Notes under the pieces: model-generated | Databases searched by the model: none | Told to the model about the DNA's origin: nothing | The model's input: only the letters and a program-made list of their open reading frames with translations | Origin: an uncultured Actinomycetes bacterium | GTDB lineage: Bacteria > Actinomycetota > Coriobacteriia > Anaerosomatales > Anaerosomataceae | DNA length: 64,000 nucleotides | Assembly (NCBI GenBank): GCA_963700295.1 | Contig: CAVOWY010000005.1 | Span: 17,405 to 81,404 of the forward strand | Direction: 5' to 3' | Program-made: the position numbers and the translations under genes | Shown here: piece by piece, positions 8,262 through 59,507 of the stretch | How positions within the stretch are numbered: the first letter of the stretch is position 1 | Layout of the letters: each line of letters begins with the position of its first letter

Positions 8262-8271
8262 GGGGCCCCCG

Positions 8272-8307
8272 CATCACACGCCGTGGGGTCAAGCATAGCG
8301 TGTGATG
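8272..8307. promoter_or_regulatory. Perfect 10-bp inverted repeat (CATCACACGC-N16-GCGTGTGATG) between the last receiver gene and the cytochrome gene
   Basis: Seen directly in the sequence. Could be a terminator hairpin for the upstream operon or an operator for the cytochrome gene. Confidence 0.3.
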
Positions 8308-40662: not shown

Positions 40663-41407
40663 CAGTCTGGTTGATGCGGCTTGCCATGGCTGCCGCGCCG
40701 AAGCCGTTGTCGATGTTCACGACCGCCATACCCGAGGCGCAGGCGTTGAGCATGCCGAGCAGCGCCGCGATGCCGCCGAGGTTCGCCCCGTAGCCCACCG
40801 AGGTGGGGACCGCGATGACCGGGCAGCAGACGAGCCCGGTGACGAGCGAAGGCAGCGCGCCCTCCATGCCCGCAACCGCGATGATCGCATTCGCGTCGCG
40901 CAGCAGATCCTCGTGGGCGAGCAGCCGGTGTACGCCCGCCACACCCACGTCGTAGAGGCGGGTCACGCGGTTGCCCATGACCTCGGCCGAGATCGCCGCT
41001 TCCTCGGCCACGTGCTGGTCGGCCGTGCCGCCGGTGGCGACCACGATGTGGCCGAGTGCCGGACGCTCGGCGCGGCGGTCCACGAGCAGGATCCGCGACT
41101 CCTCGAAGTAGCGGGCGTCGGAGGCCACCTGCGCCACCTTCTGGAAGTGCGCGGCGCTCGCGCGCGTGCCGAGGAACACCTCTCCATGCTCGAGGATCTC
41201 CCGGGCGATGGAGCGCACCTGCGACGCTGACTTGCCCTCGCACAGCACCACTTCGGCAAAGCCGCATCTGAGCGCGCGATGATGGTCGACCTTCGCCTCG
41301 CCGATGTCGGCGAACGGGAGGTGCTCGAGTCGCGCGAGCGCTTCATCGGCGCTCGACTCTCCACGGGCGACCGATTCCAGCAGCTCCCTCATGGTATTCG
41401 GATCCAT
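40660..41407 (-). CDS. larB: LarB-like PurE-family carboxylase; 3' end approximate because the frame runs on without a stop into the larC region
   Basis: MDPNTMRELL..., GVAGMEGALP, PurE-like fold. RBS CAGGAGGG. Confidence 0.7.
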
Positions 41408-41508: not shown

Positions 41509-43020
41509 GTGAACCTTCCGAAGTCCCTTGAGCGGATGGATCTGGCGACGAGAGTCCTCGTGGCCGGTCGTGCGATCGTGCTTGTGCTGATGCTCGCGTT
41601 CCACGTTCCGATGGGCGCGAGCGAGTTCACGCATTCCGCGGCCCTCAGCGTGGGAGTCACGCTGTACGCGGTGTGGTCGATCATCTGGATCGTCCACTGC
41701 TCATGAGGCCCACCAGCAACCACGTGACGATGCTCACGGTATCCGCGGTCATCGACTGGAGCGGGACTCGGCGCTTCTGGTCGTAGCCACGTCGCAGTAT
41801 CGGGACCCCTTCTTTGCGTGGTACGTGGCCGAGGCCGCCGTGTTCGGTCTCTTGCTGCGGCGACACCGGGCGTGGGTCCTCGGTGGCGTGATCACGGGGT
41901 CGTACGTGGTCGGACACCTTCTCGGCGGCCTGCTGGCCGATCCCATCGAGACCGTGTTCATTCTGGTGAACGCCGGCGCCCTGATGGGCGTGGTGGTGGC
42001 CGTTTCGCTTGCGCTCCGGGGGCAGGAGCAGCGGCAGGCCGAGGTCGAGTCGCAGCGCTCCGAGGTCGTGAACCTCAACGAGCGGCTCGAGCGCAGTGTG
42101 GCCGAGTTGCGCGCGGTCACCGAGATCACCGAACTCATCCACTCCACGCTCGAGGTCGAGTCGGTAGGACCGGTACTCCTCGAGATCCTCGAGAAGGTCA
42201 TCAACATCCCGGCCGGGTCGCTCTACGTCATCGACAAGGCTAAACAGGAGACCATCTTCTCCACGAGCAGCATCGCCGCCGCCGCCTCCCGGTCGTACTC
42301 GGGTCTCGAGCTTGCGGGGGCGCTGCCCGTGGGTTCTCCTGACGGTGCGCTCTCCTGCATAGAGCTGGTGGACCACAACCAGACGGTCGTCGTCTTCTGT
42401 GCGGACTCGGCGGCCATAGACGGTCTGTCGTCTGACGACCGGATCGTTCTCCAGGCGGTCGCGTCGGAGCTCGTCGTGGCGGTGGAGAACTCGCGGCTGT
42501 ACCGGCTCACCAAGCGTCTCGCGATCACCGACGAGCTCACCGACCTTACAACTACCGCTTCCTGCAGCAGCGCCTCGACGACGAGATCGGGCGTGCCGAC
42601 CGCTACAGCAAGACGGCTGTCGCTTCTCATGCTCGACGTCGACGACTTCAAGCGCGATCAACGACACCTACGGCCATCTCGTGGGCGACGCGGCGCTCTG
42701 GCCGAGGTGGGCAGCGTGCTGAAGAGCACCGTTCGCGAGGTCGACATCGTGGCCCGCTACGGCGGCGAGGAGTTCACGATCATCCTGCCCGAGACCGACG
42801 CGTCCGGGCGCGTTCATCGTGGCCGAGAAGATCCGCGAGGCCATCGCGATGCACCGCTTCCCCGATGCCGACGGCGGTCGCTCTGTCCACCTCACGGTGA
42901 GCATCGGGCTGGCGAGCTACCCGGTGCACGCGGACGACAAGGAGTCGCTGCTGCGCTCGGCCGACGACGCGCGTCTACCACGCCAAGGAGACCGGCAAGG
43001 ACCGCGTGCGCGCGCCTCGG
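41509..43020 (+). pseudogene. Membrane-anchored GAF-GGDEF diguanylate cyclase broken by at least 5 indels
   Basis: TM N-terminus, GAF-like middle, GGDEF (RYGGEEF) pieces alternate between frames near 41700-41780, 42545, 42610, 42665, 42820 and 42985. Confidence 0.6.
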
Positions 43021-43072
43021 CTGCGCCTGCGGCCGGATGCCGGGCTGCCGACCCGCTCGAGGAGGCCGCCGA

Positions 43073-43899
43073 ATGACGACCGTCGCCATTCCTCGGGCCC
43101 GCAGGGACGTTCAGCGAGGTGGCGGCTGCTCTCGCTCGGGCTGCCCGACGTGGAGCCGCTGCCATGCGTGACCATCGCCGAGGTGTTCGAGGCCGTGGAG
43201 CGCGGCAAGGCCGATGTCGGCGTGGTGCCGATCGAGAACTCGATCGAGGGCTCGGTGGTGGCGACGCTCGACGCGCTCGTGTTCGACTACGACGCTCGAG
43301 ATCCAGCGCGAACTCGTGCTCGACATCCACTTCTCGCTCGTGGCGGCGCCGGGCACGAAGCTGGCCGACGTCACCTCGGTGGTCGCGCATCCGCAGGCGG
43401 GCGGGCAGTGCCGCCGGTGGCTGGAGCGGAACCTGCCCGGTCGCCCGGTCGCGGCCGCGAACAGCAACGCCGAGGCGGTGCAGACGGCGGTCGGCAGCCC
43501 GGGCGTGGCCGCGCTCGGGACCGGCACTCGCCGCCGAGCTCTACGGCGCCGAGATCCTCGAAGAGGGCGTCGCAGGACTACGCGGGCAACCAGACGCGTT
43601 TCGTGGTGCTCGGCCGGGGCCTGCAGCCGCGCACCGGCCACGACAAGACGTCGCTCGCGCTGTTCATGAAGAAGGACAAGCCGGGCGCGCTCCTGATGAT
43701 CCTCTCCGAGTTCGCCTACGGCGACATCAACCTCACGAAGATCCAGAGCCGGCCCACCAAGCGCCAGCTGGGCGACTACATGTTCTTCGTCGACCTCGAG
43801 GGCCACGTGGACGACCCGCACGTGCGCCTCGCGCTCGACTGCCTGCGCCTGAAGCTGCGCGAAGTGAAGGTCCTCGGCAGCTACCCCGTCGCGCAGTAG
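43073..43899 (+). pseudogene. pheA: Prephenate dehydratase (PDT plus ACT domain) broken by at least 4 frameshifts
   Basis: MTTVAIPGPAGTF.., VGVVPIENSIEGSV.., TRF motif, and an ACT domain (LALFMKKDKPGALL..) spread over three frames. RBS GAGGAGG. Confidence 0.65.
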
Positions 43900-43999
43900 G
43901 TTCGACTTCCCCGTTCCCAACTGCGGCCCCATCTGTGATCACAAGGTATAAGCATATCGGAACAGTCCGATAATGAAACCGAGTAGCAGGGGGTTCCTC

Positions 44000-45281
44000 A
44001 TGAGCGATCAGGCGGTCGACTACCACCCGATGTGGGCCGAGCTCGGACTCGACCTGCCCACCCACGATGCGCTGCTCGGTGCGGTCGGACAGCTCTTCGG
44101 CGACGCGTACCTCACGCAGGAGAACCGCCCCGAGGGCATGGACTACCTCAACTTCGTGATGAGCGAGGTCCACGGCCTGCGCATCAAGGAGCTCGACGAC
44201 TTCCGCAAGTCCGGCGGCAAGGTATTCGGCACGTTCTGCCTGTACGTGCCCGAGGAGATCATCCGCGCGGCAGGCGGCTGGTGCGTGGGCCTGTGTGCCG
44301 GCGCCGAGTTCGGCTACGACCAGGTCGAGCAGATCATGCCGCGCAACACCTGCGCGCTCATCAAGGCATCGATGGGCTTCAAGCTCGCGCAAGGTGTGCC
44401 CGTACATCGAGTCGGCGGACCTCGTGATCGGCGAGACCACGTGCGACGGCAAGAAGAAGGCGTACGAGCTGCTCGGCGAACTCCACAACACGTGGGTGAT
44501 GGAGCTGCCGCAGATGAAGCGGCCCGAGGACGTCGCGATGTGGAAGGCCGAGATTCGCGAGCTGGTGAAGAAGGCCGAGGAGCTCACCGGCAACACCATC
44601 ACCGCCGAGAGCCTGCGCGCGTCGATCAAGGAAGTGAACGACAAGCGTCGCGCGCTGCAGCGCATCGCCGCGGCGTGCAAGGCCGCCCCGGCGCCGATCA
44701 GCGGCAAGGATCGTCTGCTCGCCACCCAGGTGGCCTTCTACGACGACGTCCCGCGCTTCACCACGATGATGAACGCGCTCGCAGACGAGCTCGAGGACCG
44801 CGTGGCTGCGGGCGAGGGCGTGGCTCCCAAAGAAGCGAAGCGCGTGCTCGTGACCGGTACGCCGATGGCGCTGCCGAACTGGAAGCTCCACGACATCATC
44901 GAGAAGGCGGGTGCCGTGGTGGTGGCCGAGGAGATGTGCACCGGCAGCCGCTACTACTCGCAGCTGGTTACCGAAGACGGCGCCTCGCTCGACGAGATGC
45001 TCGACGACATCGCCGAGAAGTACCTCGACATCAACTGCGCGTGCTTCACGCCCAACAAGGGCCGCATCGACGACGTGGTGCGCATGGCCAAGGAGTACGG
45101 CGCGGACGGCGTCATCGACTACTCGCTCCAGTTCTGCGGCCTCTACGAGATGGAGAGTCACGGCGTGGAGGCAGCCGTCCGCGAGGCAGGGCTGCCGGTG
45201 CTGAAGATCACCACCGACTACTCGATGGAAGACGTGGGCCAGCTCGCCACGCGCGTCGAGGCTTTCCTCGAGATGCTCTAG
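44000..45281 (+). pseudogene. HGD-D-family 2-hydroxyacyl-CoA dehydratase / double-cubane-cluster-type protein, with one frameshift near 44390
   Basis: N-terminal part in ORF 43973 and the remainder in ORF 44295. IGETTCDGKKK motif. Paralog of the gene at 52240-53418. Confidence 0.7.
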
Positions 45282-45285
45282 GCGC

Positions 45286-46032
45286 ATGCGGGTCCTCGGA
45301 CTGGATATCGGTTCCCGGAGCGTGGATGCGGTCTGGCTCGAAGATGGCCGGATCGTGGACTGGGCGGTGGCCGACTCGGGTTTCGACCCCGGGTCGGCCG
45401 CGGCCGTCTTCGTCGATCGTGGCGTGCACGATGCGATCGTCTCCACAGGCTACGGCCGCCATGCGGCCAAGGAGCGCTTCGGCGGGTCGGCGGTGACCGA
45501 GATCACCGCATACGGACTTGGCGCGTGGGCGCTGTTCCCCGAGGCGGCCTCGGTGCTCGACATCGGCGGCCAGGACACCAAGGTGATCTCGCTCGGGCAC
45601 TGCGGCCGCGTGGTGGATTTTGAGATGAACGACAAGTGCGCGGCCGGCACCGGCAAGTTCCTCGAAGTGATGGCCCGCGCGCTCGGCTACACGCTGGAGG
45701 AGATGGCCGACGAGGCACTTGCCGCCGAGAGCGGTGTGGCGATCTCGAGCATGTGCACGGTGTTCGCCGAGAGCGAGGTCACCGGGCTCGTGCATCGCGG
45801 CGAGGACCGCGCTCGCATCGCCCGCGGGCTGCACGACGCGATCGCCAAGCGCACGCTCGGCTCGCTCAAGCGGGTCAACGCCCAGGGGCCGCTGGTGTTC
45901 GCCGGCGGCGTGGCCAAGAACCCGGCGATGGTGGCACTGATCACCGGGGGATTCACGGGCGACGTGTGCGTGCCCGCAGAGGCGCAGATCGTGGGCGCGT
46001 ACGGGGCGGCGCTGTCCGCGGCCGAGGGGTGA
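45286..46032 (+). CDS. HgdC/BadF/BcrAD-type ATPase activator (ASKHA fold)
   Basis: LGLDIGSRSVDAV, DIGGQDTK, C(x)AAGTGKF (cluster-binding Cys) motifs. Confidence 0.85.
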   Translation: MRVLGLDIGSRSVDAVWLEDGRIVDWAVADSGFDPGSAAAVFVDRGVHDAIVSTGYGRHAAKERFGGSAVTEITAYGLGAWALFPEAASVLDIGGQDTKVISLGHCGRVVDFEMNDKCAAGTGKFLEVMARALGYTLEEMADEALAAESGVAISSMCTVFAESEVTGLVHRGEDRARIARGLHDAIAKRTLGSLKRVNAQGPLVFAGGVAKNPAMVALITGGFTGDVCVPAEAQIVGAYGAALSAAEG

Positions 46033-46038
46033 GGCCGG

Positions 46039-46308
46039 GTGTCCGGGGAGCGCGCGATCCTGATCGAGTTCGTCAACACATGACCGAGCTGTGACGAGTA
46101 CGCACGGATCGTGCGTGAGGTCGCTTCGAGATACGAGGGGAGGGTCGAGGTGCGAATCTACCAGGCCGGGCGTGACATGGCGTACCTAGCCAAGTATGGG
46201 CCCGTGATGCGCGGGACCCTCATCATCGACGAACGCATCCGCCTCGAGCATCTCACGCGACCGATCATCGAGGATGCGATCGCGCGTGCGGTCGAGGACG
46301 CCTCGTGA
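46039..46308 (+). CDS. Thioredoxin-like small protein (redox-active disulfide protein 2 type) with an in-frame TGA at the first redox Cys: UxxC selenoprotein candidate
   Basis: GTG 46039 (RBS GAGG) reads MSGERAILIEFVNT-[TGA 46081-83]-PSCDEYARIV..KYGPVMRGTLIIDER... The supplied ORF 46111-46308 is the same frame downstream of the TGA. Hairpin ACGCAC-GGATC-GTGCGT at 46100-46116, 15 nt after the TGA. Confidence 0.5.
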
Positions 46309-47393
46309 GCTTCCTCAGAGACACGCTTGCGGGCACCTGGCTGGTGCTAGCCGATGCCGCACCCTGGCTGCTGGTGAGCTACGTGCTCGCCGGCCTGATG
46401 CACGAGTTCGTGAGTCCGGAGCGGCTCCAGGCGCACCTCGGCAACAAGCGCCTGTCGTCGATTGTGAAAGCCACGTTCTCGGGCATGCTGCTGCCGATGT
46501 GCAGCTGCGGCGCGATTCCGCTCGGCCTGAGCCTGTACTACTCCGGTGCATACCTGGGGCCGGCCCTCGCGTTCATGGTCGCCGCCCCGATGATCAACCC
46601 TGCAGCCATCTTGCTGACTTACAGCCTGCTCGGCCCGCAGATCGCCACGATCTACGTCATCGGTGGCATCCTGATCCCGATCATCGTCGGCCTGATCGCC
46701 AACGCGCTCGGTGGTGAGCAACTGTACGCACAGGGCGTCGATGAGGTGTCGCGTGTGCAGCTGGCCGCGGCGCAGGGTACGCCGCTCAGGGATCGGCTGC
46801 GAGCCGGCCTCAGCTACGGGTTCGGCGACCTGGGCGTGGTCGTGAGCAAATACGTGGTGATCGGCGCGATTTCGGCCGGGGTTCTGTTCGCGCTCATCCC
46901 TGACACGTTCATCGATCGATACCTGGGCGACCCAGGGTTGCTGTCGCTCTTCGGCGTGAGCGTTCTCGGGGCGACCATGTATGTCTGCGCAGTCGGCCAT
47001 ATCCCGTTCATCGCAGCGATCGTGGCGGCCGGGGCGGCGCCCGGAACCGCGATTACGTTCCTGATGGCCGGCGCCGCCACCAACGTGCCCGAGTTCATCA
47101 TGATCTCGAAGCTCATCGGAAAGCGCACGGCCCTCTTCTACTCCGTGGTGGTCGTGTTCTTCGCTCTGGCGGCAGGTTGGTTCGCCAATGCCCTGATCGG
47201 GGACGGGTTCGTGCCGTTCATAGACCCGGAGCGCAGCGCCGGAACGATCGCGATCGCCAACTGGTTCATCATCACGGTCCCGCCCTGGCTTCAGGTGCTG
47301 AGCGCCGTCGCGGTCGTTGGTCTGGGGCTCCTCGCCTATCGGGGCAGGCTCACCGCGCTGTTCGCGCGCGTCCCTGCGGGGGCCGAGTCATGA
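46305..47393 (+). CDS. COG0701-type permease with a CxC motif (ArsP-like)
   Basis: LLPMCSCGAIPL motif, ~9 TM. GTG overlaps the stop of the thioredoxin-like gene, suggesting translational coupling. Confidence 0.8.
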   Translation: MSFLRDTLAGTWLVLADAAPWLLVSYVLAGLMHEFVSPERLQAHLGNKRLSSIVKATFSGMLLPMCSCGAIPLGLSLYYSGAYLGPALAFMVAAPMINPAAILLTYSLLGPQIATIYVIGGILIPIIVGLIANALGGEQLYAQGVDEVSRVQLAAAQGTPLRDRLRAGLSYGFGDLGVVVSKYVVIGAISAGVLFALIPDTFIDRYLGDPGLLSLFGVSVLGATMYVCAVGHIPFIAAIVAAGAAPGTAITFLMAGAATNVPEFIMISKLIGKRTALFYSVVVVFFALAAGWFANALIGDGFVPFIDPERSAGTIAIANWFIITVPPWLQVLSAVAVVGLGLLAYRGRLTALFARVPAGAES

Positions 47394-47881
47394 AGCGGAT
47401 CGCCGTGATCGCCGCCACGCTGGCCGCGCTCGTGCTGGCCGGATGCGCGCCTGAGACTGCCGCCGAGACCGTGACCACCGTGCCGGAGTCCAACGCGCTT
47501 GTGAACTGGTACGTGGGGCAGCACGCGGACACCCGCGTCGTTGCTTCGGCGCTCGGCGACGTCACCGCGGACGGCACCGATGACCTGGTCGTCATCTACC
47601 AGAAGGCTGACGACGAGGACCGGCGTTGGATGCGCGTGGTCGTTGGGGGCGACGAGCCGACCGCGACCGACGAGGTGCCGGCCCCTGTAGAGAACCAGCG
47701 CATCGACTTCCGCGACATCGACGAGCAAGCCCCCATTGAGTTCGTCATCCGGGGATCGAAAGCGGGCAACGTGGGCTTCGCGATCTTCCGGGTGACCGAC
47801 GGGAAGCTCGAGAACGTCTTCGGCGAGGACATGGATCGCTGCTGCGAAGCGCAGCCGCGCGTGACGCACCAAGCGTCCTAA
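47390..47881 (+). CDS. Hypothetical lipoprotein
   Basis: Lipobox LAGC. ATGA overlap with the permease stop. Confidence 0.5.
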   Translation: MKRIAVIAATLAALVLAGCAPETAAETVTTVPESNALVNWYVGQHADTRVVASALGDVTADGTDDLVVIYQKADDEDRRWMRVVVGGDEPTATDEVPAPVENQRIDFRDIDEQAPIEFVIRGSKAGNVGFAIFRVTDGKLENVFGEDMDRCCEAQPRVTHQAS

Positions 47882-47941
47882 AGGGTTCATCGGCGGATGG
47901 CGCCGTGCAGCACGTATGTATACCGAACAGGGAGGGAATGC

Positions 47942-49072
47942 ATGGACAGGTTCGGACGGGTGATCGCGCTGCTGCTGGCAGTGGTGCTCATCGCAGGGAT
48001 GGTCGCTGGTTGTGCGGTTGAGGACACGACGACCGGTGAGACGACCGAGGAGGAAGCGGTCGACGACTACACGGTCAAGCTCGGCTACTACAACTGCGAC
48101 CACATGCTCGCATCGGTCGTGGCGAACGACGCCGGCATCTTCGAGGAGATGGGCCTCGACGTCGAGCTCACCGGCAACGGCAACGTGCCCGAGGCGATGG
48201 CCGCCGGTCAGATGGACGTGGGCTACATCGGCACGGAGGGTCTGATCAAGGCGCGGGAGAAGGGATCGCCCATTTTCGTGGCTGCGTGCAATCACGTGGG
48301 TGGCTCGTTCTACCTCGTGGCCTCGAATGACATCAAGACCAAGGAGGACCTTGTCGGCAAGGAGCTTGGCCTTGCTCCGGACATCGACAAGACCGACGCC
48401 TACTGGGTACGCATCGCGAAGAACACCGGCATCCCGGTGGAGGCGAGCAACTACCAGCCGTACGCCATGGAGATCAAGGACCAGTTCCTCGCACTCACCG
48501 CCGGGCAGATCGACGGCTACGTGACCTGTGATCCGTGGGGCTCCGCTGCGGTCGTGGATGGCGTGGGCTGGATCGTCGGCGACGACACGCACATCCCGGG
48601 CACCGATGAGTACGGTGTGTGCTGCTCCTACGCGATGAACGAGGACTTCGCTGCCGAGCATCCCGAGCTTGCGGTGAAGATGGTGCAGGCGCACGCCAAG
48701 GCGATCCAGTACACATACGAGCACCCGGCCAAGGCCGCGAAGATCTTCGCCGAGAACTACGGCGTCAAAGACGAGGTCGCACTCATGACCATCTGGCACA
48801 AGCTCATCGCCGATGGACGCACGCTGACCTGGAAGATCGACGAGGAGCTCTACCAGAACGAGGTCGACTATGCGATCGAGGTCGGCACCATGGACTTCAC
48901 GCCATCGCTCGACGACTTCGTCAAGACCGACATCTACGACCAGGCCGAACTGGCTGACTTTGACGCGTTCATCGCAGACGAGGTCGACTCGGTCATGCCG
49001 CTCGACATGAGCTACGAGGACTTCAAGGCCTATGCGCTCGAGACTGACCGCGACTCCGGGCTTGAGCTCTAG
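47942..49072 (+). CDS. ABC transporter substrate-binding lipoprotein (NMT1/SsuA/TauA-like)
   Basis: Lipobox VAGC, RBS GGGAGGG, NMT1-like sequence. Confidence 0.75.
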   Translation: MDRFGRVIALLLAVVLIAGMVAGCAVEDTTTGETTEEEAVDDYTVKLGYYNCDHMLASVVANDAGIFEEMGLDVELTGNGNVPEAMAAGQMDVGYIGTEGLIKAREKGSPIFVAACNHVGGSFYLVASNDIKTKEDLVGKELGLAPDIDKTDAYWVRIAKNTGIPVEASNYQPYAMEIKDQFLALTAGQIDGYVTCDPWGSAAVVDGVGWIVGDDTHIPGTDEYGVCCSYAMNEDFAAEHPELAVKMVQAHAKAIQYTYEHPAKAAKIFAENYGVKDEVALMTIWHKLIADGRTLTWKIDEELYQNEVDYAIEVGTMDFTPSLDDFVKTDIYDQAELADFDAFIADEVDSVMPLDMSYEDFKAYALETDRDSGLEL

Positions 49073-49137
49073 CCGTACTCCAGAGCAGGAAGGAGCCGAG
49101 GCGGGGCGCCGCGCAGGCGGCGCTCCGCCCGTCCCCG

Positions 49138-49947
49138 ATGAAACGACTCGCACGCAGTGTGCTGGTGGTAGCGACGGTCCTTACTGTGGTCGTCTTGGTT
49201 CTTGTCGCCTCGTCGGCCTCACGTATCGACGAGTCCGGCGAGGGCGCCACAATCAACCTCGGCACGCCCGCTGACTCGGCGGGACTGCTAGGTAGCGTGC
49301 TGGATGGCGTCAGCGTGAACGGCGGGAGCGAGATCGTCGCCTACCCGCTCAAGGACTGCTGCACTACCAAGACCGAGTATGCGCTGTCGGTGGACTTGCT
49401 CGACGCGGCGCTTCTCTGTCCCGATGCGGCCGAGCGTCTTGTCGAGCGGGATGCGCGGTACGTGCGCGTGGGAGCTGTGGTGATGAACTCGGATGTGCTT
49501 GTGGCTCGCGGGGACGGTCAGCCGATCGTGGTCGTGGCGGTCGGTGTGAACCGGGACTATCAGGTGCAGATCGCACGGGAGCAGTGGGGTGCGGCCATCG
49601 ATGTGCGGCCAACGCTTTCCTCGGTGATCTCGCTGGCGGTGGCCGATGGTGAGGTCGACGCTGCGGTGGTCGATCTGCTGGATGCGCGTGCGCTCGTCAC
49701 CACGGGATCGGACGTGACTCCTGTCGAAGGCGACGTGGTCTCGTACGAACTCGTGGTGACGCGCGACTTCGCGGTGAGCGACGAATACGCGACCTTTCTC
49801 GACCAGATGGGCGATGCGGCCGAGAGCCTCAATCGCGCTGAGGTCTTCAGCTCGACGGTCCGTTCCTGGACGGGGACGGCGATGACGAAGGAGGAGGTGG
49901 ACCTGTGGAGAGACTCGAAGATGTGCTTCGTGAGGCCGAGCCCCTGA
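49138..49947 (+). CDS. Hypothetical secreted protein, possibly a degenerate substrate-binding-like protein
   Basis: N-terminal TM/signal segment only. Confidence 0.35.
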   Translation: MKRLARSVLVVATVLTVVVLVLVASSASRIDESGEGATINLGTPADSAGLLGSVLDGVSVNGGSEIVAYPLKDCCTTKTEYALSVDLLDAALLCPDAAERLVERDARYVRVGAVVMNSDVLVARGDGQPIVVVAVGVNRDYQVQIAREQWGAAIDVRPTLSSVISLAVADGEVDAAVVDLLDARALVTTGSDVTPVEGDVVSYELVVTRDFAVSDEYATFLDQMGDAAESLNRAEVFSSTVRSWTGTAMTKEEVDLWRDSKMCFVRPSP

Positions 49948-50736
49948 CGGCGCCGCCCGTGTCCGCAGCGCGCGGCGGCGTGCTCGGGTGGTTGAGCAGA
50001 CAGCAGTGGCTCATCTCGATCGCAGCGATCTTGATAGTGTGGCAGTTCGCCGCGGCGCACTATGACGCGGAGATCGATCCTGCCCTACCCGGTGGCGACC
50101 CTGAAGGCGCTCGCCTTTGCCTTTGTGGACGCCGAAACGCTCATCAATCTCGCCATCACCGTGCGAAGGGTGCTGATCGGCTTCGTCTGGGCCCTCGGCA
50201 TCGGTATCCCACTTGGTATGGCGATGGGCTCCTCCAAGACGATCAGGCGGCTCGTGGGTCCCATCGCGGACTCCGTGCGACAGGTCCCGATCATGGCGTG
50301 GGTCCCGCTCACGATCGTGTGGTTCGGTCTTGGGGACGGGCCCACGGTATTCCTCATCGCCATGGTCGGCCTGTTCCCGGTCCTGCTCTCGACGATCGCA
50401 GGCGTGGACAGCATCTCGAAGGACTACTACAACGCCGCGCGCAGCATGGGGGCGAACCGCTCGAGCGTGATACGTAACGTGGTGATTCCTGCGGCGATGC
50501 CGGACGTTCTGACCGGCATGAGGCTCGCGCTCTCGGCCGGCTGGATGTCCGTCATTTGAGCAGAGTTCATAGCGACGAGTGCAGGTTTCGGGTACTCGAT
50601 GGTAAGGGCGCAGACGATGATGCAGACCGACCGGCTGGTCGCGCTGATGATCATGGCCGCCCTGATAGGATTCTCGATCGATCGGCTGCTGTTGATGGTC
50701 AACCGGCGGCTCGCGCCGTGGAGGTTCGCGGCGTGA
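49905..50736 (+). pseudogene. ABC permease (SsuC/TauC-like) with one frameshift near 50060 and an in-frame TGA at 50557-50559
   Basis: N-terminus in ORF 49905, the core in ORF 50062, and the protein continues in the same frame after the TGA (AEFIATSAGFGY...). Confidence 0.6.
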
Positions 50737-51521
50737 GGCGTCTGTGCATCGATAGCCTGTCCAAGGAGTTCACCGGTCGGGGTGGCACGCACCGCGTCCT
50801 CGACAACGTGTCACTGTGCGTCGAGCCCGGTGAGTTCGTGACCCTGCTCGGGCCGTCGGGATGCGGCAAGACGACGCTCCTCACGATCGTTGCGGGATTC
50901 CAGTCGGCCACCAGCGGGCGCGTGTCGCTCGACGGCATGGCGCTCGACGGGCCTGGTCCGGACCGCGGCTTCGTGTTCCAGGACTACGCGCTCTTTCCGT
51001 GGATGACGGTGCGCGACAACATCCTGTTCCCGATGCAGCAGGTGGGAATGGATCCGCCAGATCAGGAGCGCAGACTCACCGAGCTGCTCACGATGTCGCA
51101 CCTGGCCGGCAGGGAGCACCTCTACCCCCATCAACTGTCGGGCGGCATGAAGCAGCGGACGGCGTTCGTGCGGGCCCTCGCAACGCGGCCAGAGGTGCTC
51201 TTGATGGACGAACCTCTCGGCGCGCTCGACTACCAGATGCGCATCCGGCTGCAGGCCGAGCTCGAAGCCATCTTCTGCGCCGAGCGAACGACGATTCTCA
51301 TGGTCACGCACGACGTGGAAGAAGCCGTCTACCTGAGCGATCGCGTTGTGGTGATGGCACTCGGCGGCGGCCACGTCGTCGCCGACGTCCGTATCGACAT
51401 GGAGCGTCCGCGGCACCGGCGAAGCGAGGCCTACCACCGCTACAAGGACGACCTGATGGAAGCGCTTGAAGTGGCGATGGGACCAGCGGGCGACAACGGC
51501 ACCACCGGATTCATCGCGTGA
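50733..51521 (+). CDS. ABC transporter ATP-binding protein (SsuB/TauB-like)
   Basis: GPSGCGKTT (Walker A), LSGGMKQR, LLMDEP. GTG overlaps the permease stop. Confidence 0.8.
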   Translation: MRRLCIDSLSKEFTGRGGTHRVLDNVSLCVEPGEFVTLLGPSGCGKTTLLTIVAGFQSATSGRVSLDGMALDGPGPDRGFVFQDYALFPWMTVRDNILFPMQQVGMDPPDQERRLTELLTMSHLAGREHLYPHQLSGGMKQRTAFVRALATRPEVLLMDEPLGALDYQMRIRLQAELEAIFCAERTTILMVTHDVEEAVYLSDRVVVMALGGGHVVADVRIDMERPRHRRSEAYHRYKDDLMEALEVAMGPAGDNGTTGFIA

Positions 51522-51537
51522 GGAGAAGGGGAGGCAG

Positions 51538-52209
51538 ATGCATACGTTCAAGGACTACCCGACCGAACAGCTGCTGATCGACAGCCTGTGGTCCCGGATG
51601 ACGCCCACTGAGCGGGAGTTCCGGATCGAGGTGCTCAACGCGATCATCGGCGCCGGCGGACCTGTGGGGCCGGCAGACGTGGCATGGGTCGCCGAGGACC
51701 ATGGTGGCGCCTCGGCAGCGGACCTGTTCGATGCGATCGCCGCGAAGCATGTGATCGTAGTAAGCGACGGGCTCGTGCAGTTCGCCTACCCCCTCTCCGC
51801 CCTCGCCACCAATCACACCGTGCACCTCGCCGATGGCCGCTCGTTCAGTGCCATGTGCGCGATCGACGCGATGGGCTCGGCGCTCACGCTCGGACAGAAC
51901 ACGGTGGTGGAGGACAAGTGCAGCGTGTGCGGCACGCCGATCACCGTGCGGGTCGTGAACGGCGCGCTGGCGAGTGTGGATCCTCCCACCGCACACGCGA
52001 TCCACGCGGACCTGTCGGGGACGGGAGAGGACTGGGCCGCCAGCTGTTGAAACGTCATGAACTTCTTCTGTACGAAGAAGCATTTTGAGGAGTGGCGTGA
52101 CGCATCGGGAACCAGCATGGACGGGTTGTTCATCCTTGATGCGGAAGACGCATTCAAGGCCGCCGACATCGTGTTCGGCCGACATGAGGAGCGTGCGACG
52201 GGGAAGTGA
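51538..52209 (+). CDS. merB: Organomercurial lyase (MerB) homolog with an in-frame TGA at the position of catalytic Cys159/Cys160: selenoprotein candidate
   Basis: RBS GGGAGG. SAMCAIDAMG matches MerB AWCALDTLI (Cys96/Asp99). CSVCGTPITV matches CAATGAPVSL. ...AASC-[TGA 52048-50]-NVMNFFCTKKHFEEW continues in the same frame and matches MerB SFCCHVHFFASVPTAEDW. Hairpin CTTCTTC-TGTAC-GAAGAAG at 52062-52080, 11 nt after the TGA. Confidence 0.55.
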
Positions 52210-52239: not shown

Positions 52240-53418
52240 CTAGATCATCTGCTCCACGAACGCCTCGATGCGCGTGCGCAGCTGGCCGAGGTCCGACTCG
52301 GAGTAATCGGTCTCGAGCTTGAGGTACGGCAGCTTGAGGACGTCTCGCGTGTAGCGCCCCACCTCTACCGACTCAACGTTGAAGGTGTGGCAGCTCTGCC
52401 AGACGGTGTCGATGACGCCGTCCACGCGGTAGTCGACCACGCAGCGACCGAGGAGCTCGGTGCGCCCGTTGTTCGGGCTCATGCATGCGCACGGGATGCC
52501 GAGCGTGTGGCGTGCGAGCGCCTCGAACGGATCGCCGTCCTCGTCGATCACGCGGTCGTACATCTTGATGCCGCTGCACGCGTCGTGACACACGACGTGT
52601 GCCCCCGCCTCTTCGGCGAGGCGCATGACCTTGTTCGTCTCCGGTGCCATGGGCGTGCCGGTGACCAAGATGCGCGGCCGGGCCGGAGCGGTCCGGGACT
52701 CGGCACGCCGCGCCGCGGACTCCTCCTCGAGCACTGAGATCAGTTCGCGCAGCTTCTCGTGGTAGGGCTCTTCGTCCACGAGGAAGCCTCCGCCGTCTTG
52801 CACGGTGAGCATCTGGGTCCAGGTCATCGGGGGCTCGTCTTCGGCGAAGAACGAGGCCACCTTCCGAAGGAGCGCAGCGCACTCGTTGGACTCGCGGATC
52901 GCGGCGCGCAGCGATTCCGTGGTGATCGTGCCGCCGGTGGCCTCCTCGACGAACGCAGCAACCCCGCGGATCTCGCTGAGCCACCAGGAGAACGCCGGCT
53001 CAGCACCGTCGCCGCCCGCAAACGGGAGCTGCATCACGTGAACCGGTTTGAGCGCGCGAAGCAGCTCGAAGACCTTCTTCTTGCCATCGCACGTGGTCTC
53101 GCCGATGAGCGCGTCGGAGAAATGGAAGAACGGACAGGTGTCGGTGATCGCGAGACCATACGACGACTTGATGAGCGGGCAGAAGGCCCGGGGGAGATCT
53201 ACTTCCGCCGCGGAGATGGCGTTGTTGTCATTCCCGCACAGCGAGACGGGTATGGCGCCGGCAGCGCGAACGAGTTCGGCCGGCATGAAGCCGCAATAGA
53301 GGCCAACCACTTTCCGGCCGTCGTCCTTCGCGTGCTTGAAGTCGACTCGCGCCCAGTCCGCCATCTCGGCGAACTCCTCCACCAGCGCCGCGATACGCTC
53401 GTTGCCCCCATCCGGCAT
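52240..53418 (-). CDS. HGD-D-family 2-hydroxyacyl-CoA dehydratase / double-cubane-cluster-type protein (intact paralog)
   Basis: IGETTCDGKKK plus conserved Cys positions. 392 aa. Confidence 0.8.
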   Translation of the reverse strand: MPDGGNERIAALVEEFAEMADWARVDFKHAKDDGRKVVGLYCGFMPAELVRAAGAIPVSLCGNDNNAISAAEVDLPRAFCPLIKSSYGLAITDTCPFFHFSDALIGETTCDGKKKVFELLRALKPVHVMQLPFAGGDGAEPAFSWWLSEIRGVAAFVEEATGGTITTESLRAAIRESNECAALLRKVASFFAEDEPPMTWTQMLTVQDGGGFLVDEEPYHEKLRELISVLEEESAARRAESRTAPARPRILVTGTPMAPETNKVMRLAEEAGAHVVCHDACSGIKMYDRVIDEDGDPFEALARHTLGIPCACMSPNNGRTELLGRCVVDYRVDGVIDTVWQSCHTFNVESVEVGRYTRDVLKLPYLKLETDYSESDLGQLRTRIEAFVEQMI

Positions 53419-53525
53419 GAGCCGTCCCCCTGTCTCGACGTGTCATATTGTTTGCTGATTGTATCAATCAGCGATGTAGATATAAACTCGGGGTGCGCAC
53501 CAGCTTCGCCCCGGCAGGAGTGCTC

Positions 53526-54164
53526 ATGAGCGACATGATCCAGATGATGAAGTCCTTCCTCGCCGACTGGCGACGTTACGGCAAGGACGCCAGGAAGCAC
53601 GACGCGTGGATTCGCAAGCATGCCCGTAATCGCGGGTGGAGCGTGAACTCCCGCTGGATGATCTACACGAACCTCAAGCTGTGGATCGCCGACTCGGAGG
53701 CGATGTACGGGCGACGCTACTGTCCGTGCTACGAACCTTCGGGCGACCCTGACCTCGACCGCAGCCTCATCTGTCCCTGCCAGTTCGCGCAGGAGGAGAT
53801 CGACACGACGGGTTGGTGCCACTGCACGCTCTTCGGGCGGGGCGACCTCACCCCTGCGGACTTCAAGCGCGCCGAGGACCAGCTCATGAAGGAGTATCGC
53901 GGCACCCCCCTCAAGCTCGTCGAGGGCGTGCTCGATACGCGCGGCCAGCACATCGATGTCTTGCGCGGCATCCCCGTACCCGATGCGATCCACCAGGTGA
54001 AGCGGGCGATCGGAGCCGTCGGTCTGCCGCTCGAGGTGATCGTTGCCACCAAGCCCGAGGGGGAGCACCTGCTCCGACTTGCCGAGATGCGCGGGCTTTC
54101 CGCCAACCTGGAGGAGCACGACGACCACTTTCGGGTCATGCTCACGCCGGGTTCGGTCGGCTAG
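53526..54164 (+). CDS. Ferredoxin:thioredoxin reductase catalytic-subunit-like domain (CPC..CPC..CHC) fused to a ~110-aa C-terminal domain of unknown function
   Basis: YCPCYEPSGDPDLDRSLICPCQFAQEEIDTTGWCHCTLF matches the FTR beta-subunit 4Fe-4S/disulfide motif. RBS GGCAGGAG. Confidence 0.7.
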   Translation: MSDMIQMMKSFLADWRRYGKDARKHDAWIRKHARNRGWSVNSRWMIYTNLKLWIADSEAMYGRRYCPCYEPSGDPDLDRSLICPCQFAQEEIDTTGWCHCTLFGRGDLTPADFKRAEDQLMKEYRGTPLKLVEGVLDTRGQHIDVLRGIPVPDAIHQVKRAIGAVGLPLEVIVATKPEGEHLLRLAEMRGLSANLEEHDDHFRVMLTPGSVG

Positions 54165-54225: not shown

Positions 54226-54939
54226 ATGACGCGGTTCACCGTAGACCTCCACAACCACACACCGCTGATCCCGAGCGACTACCGCGGCGACATCGCCACG
54301 ACACCGCGGCAGATCGTCGAGCGCGCCCTAGAGATGGGCATCGACGTCTGGGGCATCGCGGACCACTGGAGCCTGGAGTACGGCGCCCGTGTGGTGGCGG
54401 CGGCCGCCGAGGTGACGGCCGAGACCGGGCGTACGCTTCTCGTGCTGCCCGGTGCCGAGTTGCGCATCCGACACGAGGGCGAGGAGACGCACCTTGTCGC
54501 GCTCTTCCCGCCGGAGGATGCTGCCCGGCGCTTCGACGCGTTGCTCGCCGAGCTGGGTCTGCGGGCGCCGGTGGCGCCGCTCGATGAGCTCCCGCACTTC
54601 GCGCTTGAGTTCGATCCGCTTGAGGTCGCACGTCTGGTGACCGAGGTCGGCGGGCTGTGTCATGCGGGCCACGTGGACCGCACCTTCGGCGAGTATCGCT
54701 TCATCGACTCCGAGCTCGTGCATCATCTCGCCGAGTGCGAGCACGTCTCGGCGATCGAACTCGTCGATCACTCCGCACGGAGCCACTTCCGTGACGGGCT
54801 TGCGATCGCGCACATCGCCTCCTCGGACTCACACTCGCTCGAGGAGATGGGGCGTCGCACCGCAACGCTCGAGATGCCGGAGCTGTCCTTCGAGGGCCTG
54901 CGAGCCGCATTCCGCACCGCTCGGCTCAGCGCGACCTGA
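54226..54939 (+). CDS. PHP-domain metal-dependent phosphoesterase
   Basis: VDLHNHT, ADHW, SDSH motifs. Confidence 0.65.
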   Translation: MTRFTVDLHNHTPLIPSDYRGDIATTPRQIVERALEMGIDVWGIADHWSLEYGARVVAAAAEVTAETGRTLLVLPGAELRIRHEGEETHLVALFPPEDAARRFDALLAELGLRAPVAPLDELPHFALEFDPLEVARLVTEVGGLCHAGHVDRTFGEYRFIDSELVHHLAECEHVSAIELVDHSARSHFRDGLAIAHIASSDSHSLEEMGRRTATLEMPELSFEGLRAAFRTARLSAT

Positions 54940-55121
54940 CGCGCGGGCGATTAGCCCCCCCAACCGGGCGGAACACTCACTGTGTACGCACGCGACCGCC
55001 TCTGAGGCCGGCCGCGTGCTCGGTGTACCCTGACGGCGGCTGTCGGGGGCGCCGCAGGGCCCGGCGTTCTGGATCGGACAGTGAGGGGCACGGGCGGGCA
55101 GCCCGCGTGAAGGGAGCGACC

Positions 55122-57480
55122 ATGAGAGGGTCGAGGATTCTCAGCCTGCTGGTGTGTCTGACCGTGATCGCCGGAGTGGTAGTTGCGGCACCGGTGCCAG
55201 CAGCACGGGCGGGTACCTCGCCGTGGCGGTGGCAGAATCCCCTGCCGAACGGGGAGACTCTTAAGGCGGTGTGTCTGGCACCTGGAGCGGGCTCTTCGGC
55301 GGTCTGGACCGTGGGTGACTACGGCACGGTCCTCTATTCGGCAGACAACGGCGCTACCTGGAGCGCGAAGGCCTCGGGTACGACCGCGAGCCTCGCGGGC
55401 GTGGACATGATCAACGACAACACCGGCTGGGCGGTTGGAGCGTACGGGACTGTGGTCAAGATCTCGGGCGGCGCGTGCTCCGTGCAGGCCGAGCCCACGG
55501 GGCAGCACATCGCTGATGTGGACGTGATCGACGCAACCCACGCGTGGGCCGTTGGCTCGAACGGCGCGATCATTCGGACGGTCAACGGCACCGACTGGAC
55601 GACCGTGAGCTCGCCCACTATCCAGTACCTGACCGCAGTCCAATTCCTGAATGCGAACGAAGGATGGGTAGCCGGCTACAACAACGCGCTCTACTACACA
55701 GCCGACGCCGGTTCCACCTGGCGATTCAAAGGCACGGCTGATGGTGACTTCCAGATCGCCGACTTCTGGGTGGACGGAGACACCGTCTGGGCGGTCGGTC
55801 GTGATTCGACGTTCGCGAACCGCGTCTACACGGCGACCGACGGCAAGATTCACACGAACCTTCCCGGGGATGCCCCGTTCTACGCCGGCGTACCCATCGG
55901 CGGTCTCTCGACTGCCGTGACGTCTCTCTGCTACCTGGACAGCACGCACCTGTGGCTCACGTCAGCCGCCGGCCAGGTCATGTGCTTCAACGGGACGACC
56001 TGGACCGAGCAGACGACTCCCTACGGCTACCAATGGCTGTACGGCGTCGACTTCAGGAGTGCTTCCACGGGGGTCGTCGTGGGCAGCGGTGGTGCCATCG
56101 GCAGGACGAGCACGGGCGGTTCGTCGTGGGCGGCACGCACGAGCTACACCATCAACCCGGTCTACGGTCTGGACTTCGTGTCGCTCACGACCGGCTACAC
56201 CGTGAGCGGACAGGACGTCCTGAAGACGACCGATGGCGGCCAGTCCTGGGCGGCCATGGGCATGGGCGTGGGCCACGAACTGCTCAACGTGGACTTCCTC
56301 GACGCGACTCACGGCGCAGCTGTTGGGCAGAGCGGCACGGTCATGCTCAACACCGGCGGTGCGGCTTGGACGCCGGCGCCCTACTCGAACCCCGGCATCG
56401 AGCTCCGGGGTGCGAGCTACCAGAGTCCGACGCGGCTCTGGGCATGCGGCATCAACGGCACCATCTGCTGGTGGGATGGGGGGGCGTGGCACACGGTTGC
56501 TGACAGCAAGGCGGGCACGAACCTCCTGTTCGACATCGACTTCTTCGACGCGAACCACGGCATCGCGGTGGGCGTGAACGGCATCGTGGTGTACACGACC
56601 GACGGCGGCACCACATGGACCGCCGGTGATTCGGGCGAGGGCCCCGGAGATCGCATCGTGGGCGTGGACATGGTGAGCAGCACGGTCGGGTTCATCGTTG
56701 GCGACGACGACAACGGCACCAACTCCGGCATGCTGATGAAGAAGACGACCGACGGCGGCGCCACCTGGACGCCGATGACGCCCCCCACCTCGGAGAGCTA
56801 TAAGCCGCTTGAGGACGTCTCCTTTGCCGATGTGAACAACGGTTGGATCGTTGGCGGCGCGGGCAGTTGGTACCACACGACCAACGGCGGCGACACCTGG
56901 ACCAACGAGGTGGGGAACGGCGCGTGGCCGGTCTCTGTCTTCGCGTTCAGCCCCACGGCCGCCTGGGCCGGCACCAACTACGGCGGCATCCTCACGACCA
57001 CGCCCGCTCCGTCCACCGTCGTCCTTGTCCCCGTCTACCGCTTCTACAACTTCACCAACAGCACGCACTTCTTCACCCCATCGCTCGATGAGGCGAACTA
57101 GGTGATCGCCAACTACCCGAAGGTCTTCCGCTACGAGGGCATCTGCTACTACACCAACCCCGCCAACAACACGCAGCCGCTCTACCGCTTCTATAACCGC
57201 GTGAGCGCAAGCCACTTCTATACTGCGTCGCTCGACGAGGCGAACCACATCCTGGCCACCTGGCCGAATATCTTCACGCTCGACGGCCCGACCTACGCCG
57301 TGAACCCGGCGCCGGTCCCGAACAGCGTGCCGGTCTACCGGTTCTTCAACCTGCGCAACGGCAGCCACTTCTACACCGCGAGCGCCGAAGAGGCGGACAT
57401 GGTGATCGCCACCTGGCCCACATCTATCGCTACGAGGGGCCTGCGTTCTGGATCGGGCAGTGAGGGGACGGGCGCACAGC
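55122..57480 (+). pseudogene. Secreted BNR/Asp-box repeat beta-propeller protein with C-terminal YRFYN...SHFYT repeats, broken by an in-frame TAG (57099-57101) and a frameshift near 57430
   Basis: Signal peptide. Repeated S/T-x-D-G-G-x-T/S-W units. The repeat region continues after the TAG and its last repeat ends off-frame. Confidence 0.55.
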
Positions 57481-57500
57481 CTGCACGAGAGGAGCCGACG

Positions 57501-59507
57501 ATGAGAAGGCGCTGGACAGCTCGGATTGCGGCGGTCGTGATCGGGGCGCTGATGCTTGCGACGATGGCGCCGGTCGCGGTGCCGTCAGCGGCGGCGAGCG
57601 CTGCGCCCTATGCGGTGAAGGAGGGGCGCCTCTATCAGCCGGTTCAGTCGGAAGGCTCCGCCTTCGGCTGGGATGTGGATATCTCGGGCGACACCCTTGT
57701 AGTGGGCGCCCCCTGGTACAGCAGCGACCGGGGCGCCGCATACGTCTTTGTGCGTTCCGGTGCCTCCTGGGTGCATCAGGCCACGCTGCAGGCGCCTGCG
57801 CCAGCTGCCGGCGACGAGTTCGGCTACTCGGTGGCGATCGACGGCGACATCATCGTCGTCGGGGCGCCGTGGGATGTGGGTGCCCACGGCATGTCGGGCT
57901 CGGCTTATGCGTTCCGGCGCACTGGCGTGGTCTGGTCTGCGGGATCGCTGCTGCCCACCGAACTCGAGCAGGACGGTGACCAGCAGGGTCTGTCAGTGGA
58001 CTTTGACGGGCACTGGGCCGTTGTCGGCTGTCCTGGCCGAGGCGCAGAGCAGGGCGCGGTCCGCCCGATCGAGTGGACGGGCACCGGCTGGGACTCTCAC
58101 GGCGGAGTGACGCTCACCGGTGGCGCGCTGGCCGGCGATCGGCTCGGTGGTGCTGTGGCTGTTTCGGGCGACACCATCCTTGCTGTCTCGGCGCAGGACG
58201 ACTACGACGTACACACCGACGCCGGCAGCGTGATCGCGTACAGCTGGAGCGGCGCTGCATGGATGAATGACGAGAAGATATACTGCCCGACCCCGGTGGA
58301 CGACGGTGCCTTCGCCACCTCGATCGATCTGAACGATTCAGGCACGATCGCTGTTGTGGGCTGGGGCTGGTACGACGCGACGCCGCTTGACGGCACGTTC
58401 GCCGGACGGGCGTACATCTACACCCAGCCCATGGGCGACTGGGACCTGGCGCAAACGATCGCCAACCCGAACCCTGACTCGCCTGACGGCGAGCACTTCG
58501 GATGGGATGTGGCGCTCGACGACAGCACCGCGGTGATCGGCGGGTTCTGGGACGACGCACACCTGGGCGCGGCATACGCGTTCCTGGGCCGCAACGGCAC
58601 TTTCACCCAGCAGCAGAAGATCACCGTTACCGACGAGCCGCTCATGACGCTCTACTTCGGCCGGTCGGTAGCGCTCGACGGCGGGGTCGCCGTGATCGGT
58701 GCCGACGGTGCGTACTCGCCCACGGTCGATGACTGCGGGGCGGCGTTCGTCTACAACGCCAACGCCACGATCACCGGCATCTGCCGCGACGCCGGTACCG
58801 GCTTGCCGCTTGCGGGCGTGGAGATCCAGGCGCACTACCCCGGCGCTGGCGGCGATCCAGAACCTGCGAGCGACTACGTGCTGAGCGGTGCCGACGGGCG
58901 GTACACGCTCAAGGTGCCCTCCGCTCCGTACTACCTAAACTTCCTTCCCGGCCCCATGTACCAGGCAGGCTGGTACAACGACGTCGAGTCGTGGCTGGAC
59001 GCCACGCCGATCACCGTTGCGGCAGGCAACACGTACAACGTGGACTTCACGATCTACCCGAAGTTCTCCGTCTTCCGCTTCTTCAACGTCACGAACAACA
59101 CGCACTTCTTCACCAACTCGTTGCAGGAGAAGAACATGGTGCTCGCTACGTGGCCCGCGATCTTCCGCTACGAAGGGATCGCGTACACCACGAATCCCGC
59201 GCTCAACCGGCAGCCGCTCTATCGCTTCTACAACCGGGTGAGCAAGAGCCACTTCTACACGGCGTCACTCGATGAAGCGAATCACGTGATTGTCACCTGG
59301 TCGCACATCTTCACCTATGACGGGCCGACGTACTCGGTCTCTCCGATCGCGGGTGCGGGCATGTCGCCGGTCCACCGGTTCTACAACCTGCGCAACGGGA
59401 GCCACTTCTACACGGCCTCCACGCAGGAAGCCGACATGGTGATCGCCACCTGGCCGGATGTGTATCGCTACGAGGGGCCGGCGTTCTGGGTGGGCGGGTC
59501 GTTCTAG
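57501..59507 (+). CDS. Secreted FG-GAP-repeat beta-propeller protein with a CarboxypepD_reg-like domain and four C-terminal YRFYN..SHFYTAS..EA..WP repeats
   Basis: Signal peptide. FGxSVAxxGDTxVVGAP...GAAYVF repeats. RBS GAGAGGAG. Confidence 0.75.
   Translation: MRRRWTARIAAVVIGALMLATMAPVAVPSAAASAAPYAVKEGRLYQPVQSEGSAFGWDVDISGDTLVVGAPWYSSDRGAAYVFVRSGASWVHQATLQAPAPAAGDEFGYSVAIDGDIIVVGAPWDVGAHGMSGSAYAFRRTGVVWSAGSLLPTELEQDGDQQGLSVDFDGHWAVVGCPGRGAEQGAVRPIEWTGTGWDSHGGVTLTGGALAGDRLGGAVAVSGDTILAVSAQDDYDVHTDAGSVIAYSWSGAAWMNDEKIYCPTPVDDGAFATSIDLNDSGTIAVVGWGWYDATPLDGTFAGRAYIYTQPMGDWDLAQTIANPNPDSPDGEHFGWDVALDDSTAVIGGFWDDAHLGAAYAFLGRNGTFTQQQKITVTDEPLMTLYFGRSVALDGGVAVIGADGAYSPTVDDCGAAFVYNANATITGICRDAGTGLPLAGVEIQAHYPGAGGDPEPASDYVLSGADGRYTLKVPSAPYYLNFLPGPMYQAGWYNDVESWLDATPITVAAGNTYNVDFTIYPKFSVFRFFNVTNNTHFFTNSLQEKNMVLATWPAIFRYEGIAYTTNPALNRQPLYRFYNRVSKSHFYTASLDEANHVIVTWSHIFTYDGPTYSVSPIAGAGMSPVHRFYNLRNGSHFYTASTQEADMVIATWPDVYRYEGPAFWVGGSF

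Follow-up and report, generated by a model that had tools for sequence, protein, structure and literature searches.

In the 64-kb stretch of DNA analysed here (the window), a gene for a MerB-like protein is interrupted by a TGA codon in its own reading frame. Does this codon end the protein or is it read as selenocysteine (Sec), and would a Sec-containing protein of this kind represent a selenoprotein family of its own? The reading frame starts at ATG 51538, preceded on its 5' side by a purine-rich, Shine-Dalgarno-like stretch, and comprises 170 codons, the TGA at 52048-52050 and 52 further codons in the same frame as far as a TGA at 52207-52209. Cys170 stands directly before the internal TGA (...GEDWAASC-TGA-NVMNFFCTKKHFEEW...); read as Sec, the codon gives a C170-U171 motif with 52 residues after the U. 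An earlier note on this DNA had described a single in-frame TGA with MerB homology continuing beyond it, and had proposed Sec recoding of the MerB homologue at its catalytic thiol. The continuing homology was confirmed by the Pfam MerB family (PF03243), whose match spans the TGA and covers residues 86-213 (E=9.4e-28, 97 bits versus a cut-off of 27). The recoding is well supported by this match, by alignment to MerB and by a TGA at the same position in 34 of 34 related loci. Judged on such sequence comparisons, the recoding reading is correct: the MerB-like enzyme has a genuine selenocysteine codon at TGA 52048-52050. The gene itself is an unannotated SaoL, a member of a family that has already been described and curated, and not the first case of a new selenoprotein family.

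SaoL ('selenocysteine-assisted organometallic lyase') was described by Haft & Gwadz (bioRxiv 10.1101/2022.07.06.499078; J Bacteriol 2023) as the marker of the nine-gene SAO ('selenocysteine-assisted organometallic') locus. According to the same authors (bioRxiv 10.1101/2022.07.06.499078), the family contains Sec in 98% of cases, and the Jonquetella protein has CC in place of CU. A 2026 review of prokaryotic selenoproteins counts SaoL (NF040728, motif CU) as established, and it also cites a 2008 survey for the alkylmercury-lyase-like selenoprotein (PMC13188914). Because SaoL has been published, curated as NF040728 and included in the 2026 review (PMC13188914), the novelty claim of the earlier note, by which no established selenoprotein family comprised MerB-like lyases with Sec, fails.

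The NCBIfam equivalog model for the family (NF040728, 'MerB-like organometallic lyase SaoL') has a curated cut-off of 140 bits. It covers residues 16-170 of the window protein, its last position being the Cys before the TGA, and leaves out the 52 residues after Sec. The readthrough protein reaches 138.3 bits and its 170-aa counterpart 139.5, i.e. 0.5-1.7 bits under the cut-off. Close relatives score 136.8-162 bits, the Clostridioides difficile protein 223, and a MerB-like protein that is not SaoL (P0027) 58. The threshold is thus straddled by the whole high-GC clade, which by these scores lies at the margin of the model rather than beyond the SaoL family. The SaoL of C. difficile 630 (WP_238476746.1) shares with the window protein the MerB fold family, a C-U some 50 residues from the C-terminus whose U occupies the MerB Cys159 position, the signature W-A-x-S-C-U-N-x-M-N-F-F, and a SECIS hairpin of the form UUCUUC-UGNAC-GAAGAA. 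As in other NF040728 loci, of which C. difficile 630 is an example, the window gene is the last of SaoT-E-C-X-B-P-A-L and lies beside double-cubane reductases. The two proteins are only 31-34% identical, however, and differ in model score (138-139.5 versus 223 bits).

When the + strand was translated with TGA allowed and scanned with NCBIfam, a complete SAO locus of eight genes was found (SaoT-E-C-X-B-P-A-L, 46039-52209) in the published gene order, with SaoL last. All seven Sao families besides SaoL score above the NCBI curated cut-offs (Table 1). The start codon of SaoX is uncertain, ATG 47957 being possible. The in-frame TGAs of SaoT and SaoP are both at published Sec positions, that of SaoP (...MSVI-U-AEFIATS) being at the substrate gate. 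A thioredoxin-like TGA gene about 6 kb upstream, to which the MerB-like gene had been linked in the earlier note, proves to be SaoT (TGA 46081). SaoP, the third selenoprotein gene of the locus and one that the earlier note leaves unmentioned, is split by gene callers into ORFs of 165 and 45 aa.

Table 1. Features of the SAO locus and its flanking genes in the window
Feature	Position	Strand	Basis
Double-cubane (HGD-D family) reductase; frame switch near 44393, apparently one extra G	43973..45281	+	L033 orthologue intact
Acyl-CoA dehydratase-type activase (BcrAD/BadFG ATPase), double-cubane protein partner	45286..46032	+	TIGR00241, 203 bits
SaoT, thioredoxin-like selenoprotein; U-P-S-C redox motif, TGA 46081-46083	46039..46308	+	NF040730, 116 bits vs 65
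SaoE, metal efflux permease; CSC motif	46305..47393	+	NF040736, 449 bits vs 325
SaoC, lipoprotein; CC then 11 more residues	47390..47881	+	NF040734, 146 bits vs 80
SaoX, extra substrate-binding lipoprotein; CC motif	47897..49072	+	NF040735, 470 bits vs 300
SaoB, substrate-binding protein; Cys-Cys form, not C-U	49138..49947	+	NF040727, 188 bits vs 140
SaoP, ABC permease selenoprotein; TGA 50557-50559 = residue 166	50062..50736	+	NF040733, 361 bits vs 295
SaoA, ABC ATP-binding subunit	50733..51521	+	NF040729, 378 bits vs 360
SaoL, MerB-like organometallic lyase selenoprotein, 223 aa	51538..52209	+	Pfam MerB, NF040728, MerB-structure alignment
In-frame TGA of SaoL, codon 171, read as Sec codon	52048..52050	+	aligned to MerB catalytic Cys159
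SECIS-like hairpin CTTCTTC-TGTAC-GAAGAAG; 7-bp perfect stem, loop UGUAC, F-F-C-T-K-K codons	52062..52080	+	
Double-cubane-cluster anaerobic reductase	52240..53418	-	NF040772, 445 bits vs 350
Ferredoxin:thioredoxin-reductase-catalytic-like protein (CPC...CPC...CHC), Cys form	53448..54164	+	NF041072, 52 bits, under cut-off 160

SaoD is absent from the SAO locus in the window; it is not universal in SAO loci (bioRxiv 10.1101/2022.07.06.499078). In two contigs of closer relatives (L033 and L034), a DsrE-like gene that is possibly SaoD lies between the double-cubane and FtrB-like genes, and this gene is missing in the window. The activase and the double-cubane reductases that flank the locus are of the kind seen as neighbours in almost half of SAO-containing genomes (bioRxiv 10.1101/2022.07.06.499078), and the minus-strand reductase of the window has the same arrangement in L033 and L034. 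The gene at 53448-54164 weakly matches NF041072, an 'FtrB family double-selenoprotein' model, with Cys at this place; a Pfam FeThRed_B gene occupies the same location in L033 (14257-14880) and L034 (8653-9267).

The comparison with MerB was based on gapless HMMER alignments to solved structures (the 1S6L/3F0P family, 3F2G, and MerB2 5C17). MerB of plasmid R831b (PDB 3F0P, 1S6L) and MerB2 (5C17) are homologous to SaoL residues 40-216 with E-values of about 1e-8 to 1e-11, and the alignment continues past the TGA through residue 216. A check of the readthrough protein against characterised MerB, which the earlier note had put forward, thus finds homology spanning the TGA and a downstream frame that is MerB-like. 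The Cys96/Asp99 motif reported there is present, with SaoL Cys107 aligned to MerB Cys96 and Asp110 to Asp99. Residue 171, the TGA, falls on MerB Cys159, the second catalytic thiol, while Cys170 corresponds to Phe158 and Asn172 to Cys160. The proposal that the TGA lies within the Cys159-Cys160 pair is therefore right as to the catalytic-thiol site but not as to the pair, for the TGA sits on Cys159 itself. The equivalents of the catalytic Cys96, Asp99 and Cys159 are all kept in the window protein, which differs from MerB in having Sec for Cys159 and an extra Cys for Phe158.

A canonical MerB organomercurial lyase was considered and rejected as the identity of this protein. The MerB equivalog models NF033555 and NF009710 give SaoL 50-51 bits, against cut-offs of 200 and 193, and no mer operon is present: merA, merR, merT and merP were all absent from the window genes scanned. 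In contrast to MerB, the window gene is chromosomal and has a housekeeping-type neighbourhood with an uptake transporter.

Conservation of the TGA was assessed in 34 loci, comprising 31 from a scan of one genome per species and three contigs of closer relatives (L032, L033 and L034). The 31 include Clostridioides, Tissierella, Lachnospiraceae, Syntrophomonadaceae, Syntrophobacter, Geobacteraceae, Desulfobulbaceae, a Chloroflexia MAG and an Actinomycetota MAG. A TGA occupies the aligned SaoL position in every one of these loci, which represent at least five phyla, and in all 34 it is followed by N-x-M-N-F-F and then by a C-terminal region of about 45-60 residues. The residue before the TGA is Cys in 33 loci and Thr in the Chloroflexia MAG. 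The latter (L008 8463, CAWIVN010000015.1) has the sole T-U among the 34 (WATKT-U-TVMNFFC), with the same hairpin. The best 26 database homologues are 156-174 aa long and all end at W-A-x-S-C. A SaoL with TGA and standard hairpin was also found on a contig (L010, JAAOYE010000016.1) in a bin labelled Candidatus Woesearchaeota archaeon. The contig is only 1.7 kb long, so that this is probably a binning contaminant; the SaoL family has been reported as exclusively bacterial.

The window protein is 86% identical to P0002 and 74% identical to that of L032. Between the window and L032, substitutions at first, second and third codon positions number 9/7/22 after the TGA and 17/16/56 before it. The excess at third positions on both sides indicates that the frame downstream of the TGA is translated. 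Cys is found at the Sec position of SaoL in homologues, namely MerB (Cys159) and P0027, the MerB-like protein outside SaoL, which has CC there. In the Coriobacteriia contig L033, the sites of the window TGAs are Cys in SaoT (CPSC) and in SaoP, and SaoL is still C-U. Such interchange of Cys and Sec between homologues is the classic selenoprotein pattern.

The RNA downstream of the TGA provides a second line of evidence. The earlier note had pointed to a perfect hairpin at 52062-52080, and sequence and conservation both bear this out: the hairpin starts 11 nt after the TGA, inside the coding sequence. A role as terminator was rejected, as the hairpin is part of the conserved coding sequence and lacks a T-run. 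A perfect stem of 7 bp or more that starts 8-20 nt downstream and has an early loop G accompanies only 1.1% of the TGA trinucleotides in the window. The other two selenoprotein genes of the locus have hairpins as well, both 16 nt downstream of the TGA. That of SaoT (ACGCACG-GAT-CGTGCGT, 46100-46116) has a perfect 7-bp stem and loop GAU, and that of SaoP (50576-50598) a 7-bp stem with one G-U pair.

Among relatives, a hairpin of 6-8 bp follows the SaoL UGA in 32 of the 32 sequences examined, at a distance of 11-15 nt in 31 of them, and G is found within the first two loop positions in 31 of the 32. In the exception, L028, the best hairpin, with a loop beginning in UUUU, starts 7 nt after the UGA. 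In the main SECIS class the stem is paired in 92.9% of cases, versus 52-75% with the 3' arm shifted by 1-3 columns, and ATGAAYTTCTTCTGTACGAAGAA is almost invariant, even at synonymous sites, in genomes that range from 29% to 67% GC. Only two of the seven stem pairs show changes on both sides (e.g., CUCCUUC/GGAGGAG in the Actinomycetota MAG L005), covariation in this class being thin because the sequence is so conserved. A second class is found in Lachnospiraceae, Bariatricus and Coprococcus (L014, L022 and L025-L031), where the peptide is FFCSGAEF (F-C-S-G-A-E-F codons) and the stem UUCUGCA-GUGG-UGCAGAA, at nearly the same offset and usually 15 nt after the UGA. Here compensatory pairs occur (UUUAGCA/UGCUGAA, UUCUGUA/UACAGAA). 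That the hairpin has been maintained in the Lachnospiraceae despite a changed peptide is the strongest argument for a functional RNA. The folding energies are less telling, with a modest z-score of -1.98 for the 60-nt fold at SaoL and weak values of -0.3 to -2.0 for whole segments; thus, what argues for a SECIS element is where the hairpin lies, how well it is conserved and its compensatory changes, and not its folding energy.

These data bear directly on the possibility that the TGA is a true stop, yielding a truncated MerB-like protein of 170 aa with, perhaps, a second product of 50 aa that starts at ATG 52057. This is how the gene appears in the public annotation, where the call (P0001) has 170 aa and ends at the TGA, and ORFs of 45-50 aa are called after the TGA in L032, L033 and L034; nor is any Sec machinery encoded within the window. 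A stop at this position is nevertheless very improbable, given that the frame runs on past the TGA in 34 of 34 loci from different phyla, that MerB homology spans the TGA, which falls on the catalytic Cys159 position, that a conserved hairpin lies at SECIS distance, and that one family member has CC instead of CU (bioRxiv 10.1101/2022.07.06.499078).

As regards the Sec machinery, selA, selB, selD and tRNA-Sec were not found in the 64-kb window with NCBIfam, Rfam and ARAGORN. SelA, SelB and SelD were likewise absent from 20 further window genes scanned with NCBIfam, and Rfam and ARAGORN detected tRNA-Arg and tRNA-Leu only. Of 20 window genes confirmed by family, at least 10 normally end in TGA, which is also the commonest ordinary stop of the window. 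An alternative code with TGA as a sense codon was rejected on this ground. The genetic code is thus the standard one, and specific recoding is required at the in-frame TGAs. Were the Sec machinery lost or lacking in this organism, or selenium limiting, the UGA might be read through with Cys, Trp or another residue. We consider this just as improbable as a true stop: the three TGAs of one locus each have a SECIS-like hairpin at canonical distance, the SaoL hairpin is under constraint at the nucleotide level, and TGA is so common as an ordinary stop in the window. The literature searched contained no experiment that shows Sec incorporation or an enzymatic activity for any SaoL.

Least probable of all is an error of assembly or sequencing at the TGA, or a SaoL pseudogene. 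Three genes within 12 kb upstream (double-cubane, PheA-like and LarC-like) do show frame switches, but these are apparent indels, while the SaoL TGA is an in-frame codon that recurs unchanged in every homologue from independent assemblies, L032 (74% identity) and P0002 (86%) among them.

The frame switches themselves deserve a brief description. The + strand double-cubane gene (43973-45281) changes frame at CAAGGTGTGC, and with one G removed it aligns without gaps to its paralogue at 52240-53418; the switch near 44393 is either an assembly indel or the mark of a pseudogene. A prephenate-dehydratase-like gene (42901-43899, +) seems to leave and regain its frame, the middle part being in the frame of 43172-43669. 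In a LarC-like gene (39426-40716, -), the N-terminus is in a different frame, with the switch at about 40430-40640. Together, these changes suggest that the assembly is prone to indels.

The host of this locus appears to belong to an anaerobic Actinomycetota lineage. The window has a GC content of 67% and holds an actinobacterial-type FHA / PP2C / RodA-PBP / PASTA-kinase cluster, and the closest named SaoL relatives, among the matches listed, are Coriobacteriia and Actinomycetota MAGs. The text of the SAO paper names Firmicutes, Deltaproteobacteria, spirochaetes and Jonquetella, and no actinobacteria (bioRxiv 10.1101/2022.07.06.499078). Two other features of the window may be recorded. An ORF at 7098-8273 (-) has about seven CxxCH motifs (CGTCH, CEECH, CFTCH, CSDCH, CAACH, CQQCH, CMNCH) and has the appearance of a secreted multihaem cytochrome c, something unusual for an actinobacterial-type genome. 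The region 54795-59507 (+) encodes two very large secreted proteins in which a motif similar to Y-R-F-Y-N-x-x-x-x-S-H-F-Y-T-A-S-x-x-E-A recurs; NCBIfam gave no match for the second protein (57102-59507).

Compared with known SaoL systems, the window locus differs in its 67% GC, Actinomycetota-like host, in the lack of SaoD, in the CC of SaoB and in the tail of SaoC after CC. A free Cys-Cys C-terminus is the defining feature of SaoC, and in the window CC is followed by 11 residues (CCEAQPRVTHQAS). The SaoC of the independent relative L032 (2435-3028) has a longer tail after CC, and that of the Coriobacteriia contig L033 the canonical CC-stop. The tail appears to reflect loss of the defining feature in this clade rather than an error. 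What is modestly new is the high-GC, Actinomycetota-like host from an under-sampled lineage, the score right at the HMM cut-off and a SaoC not ending in CC-COOH. We tentatively suggest, while regarding it as somewhat less than an even bet, that the high-GC, Actinomycetota-like lineage represented by the window, L032 and P0002-P0006 carries a distinct SAO sub-type. Its traits are a SaoL at the edge of the model, a SaoC without free CC end and an all-Cys SaoB, in a locus whose fixed neighbours are two double-cubane reductases, an activase and a ferredoxin:thioredoxin-reductase-like protein.

Taken as a whole, the most likely reading, to which we assign a probability of roughly 0.93, is that UGA171 is decoded as Sec and that SaoL is a cytosolic enzyme of a complete SAO locus which has kept the active-site geometry of MerB. 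By analogy with bacterial Sec insertion, SelB and Sec-tRNA-Sec, recruited by the hairpin, would decode UGA171. Cys107, Asp110 and Sec171, with Cys170 as an extra ligand, might then bind a soft metal(loid), C170-U171 acting as a metal-chelating pair. A Cys-Sec pair is also the presumed soft-metal ligand in other metal-handling selenoproteins with CU or CC motifs, such as HgcA and the SO_0444 Cu/Zn efflux family (bioRxiv 10.1101/2022.07.06.499078), whose folds, however, are unrelated and show no homology to SaoL. If MerB chemistry is a guide, the carbon-metal(loid) bond of an imported organometallic would be cleaved by MerB-type protonolysis. Uptake of the substrate could proceed via the ABC transporter SaoX/B/P/A, whose permease gate would contain Sec, and the freed metal may be exported by SaoE. 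The lipoprotein SaoC and the thioredoxin-like selenoprotein SaoT complete the locus, and double-cubane reductases lie on both sides of it. Haft & Gwadz favour a metabolic over a resistance role for SAO, and the metal need not be mercury (bioRxiv 10.1101/2022.07.06.499078).

For annotation, the public SaoL call, cut at 170 aa, needs to be extended, as do those of SaoT and SaoP in the same locus, and the curated cut-off of NF040728 just misses the high-GC clade. The MerB-like selenoprotein candidate is settled as SaoL and does not merit further work as a new family of selenoproteins. The SAO system evidently reaches high-GC, Actinomycetota-like anaerobes, and the distinct sub-type suggested for this lineage, if real, could help to dissect which parts of SAO chemistry are essential.
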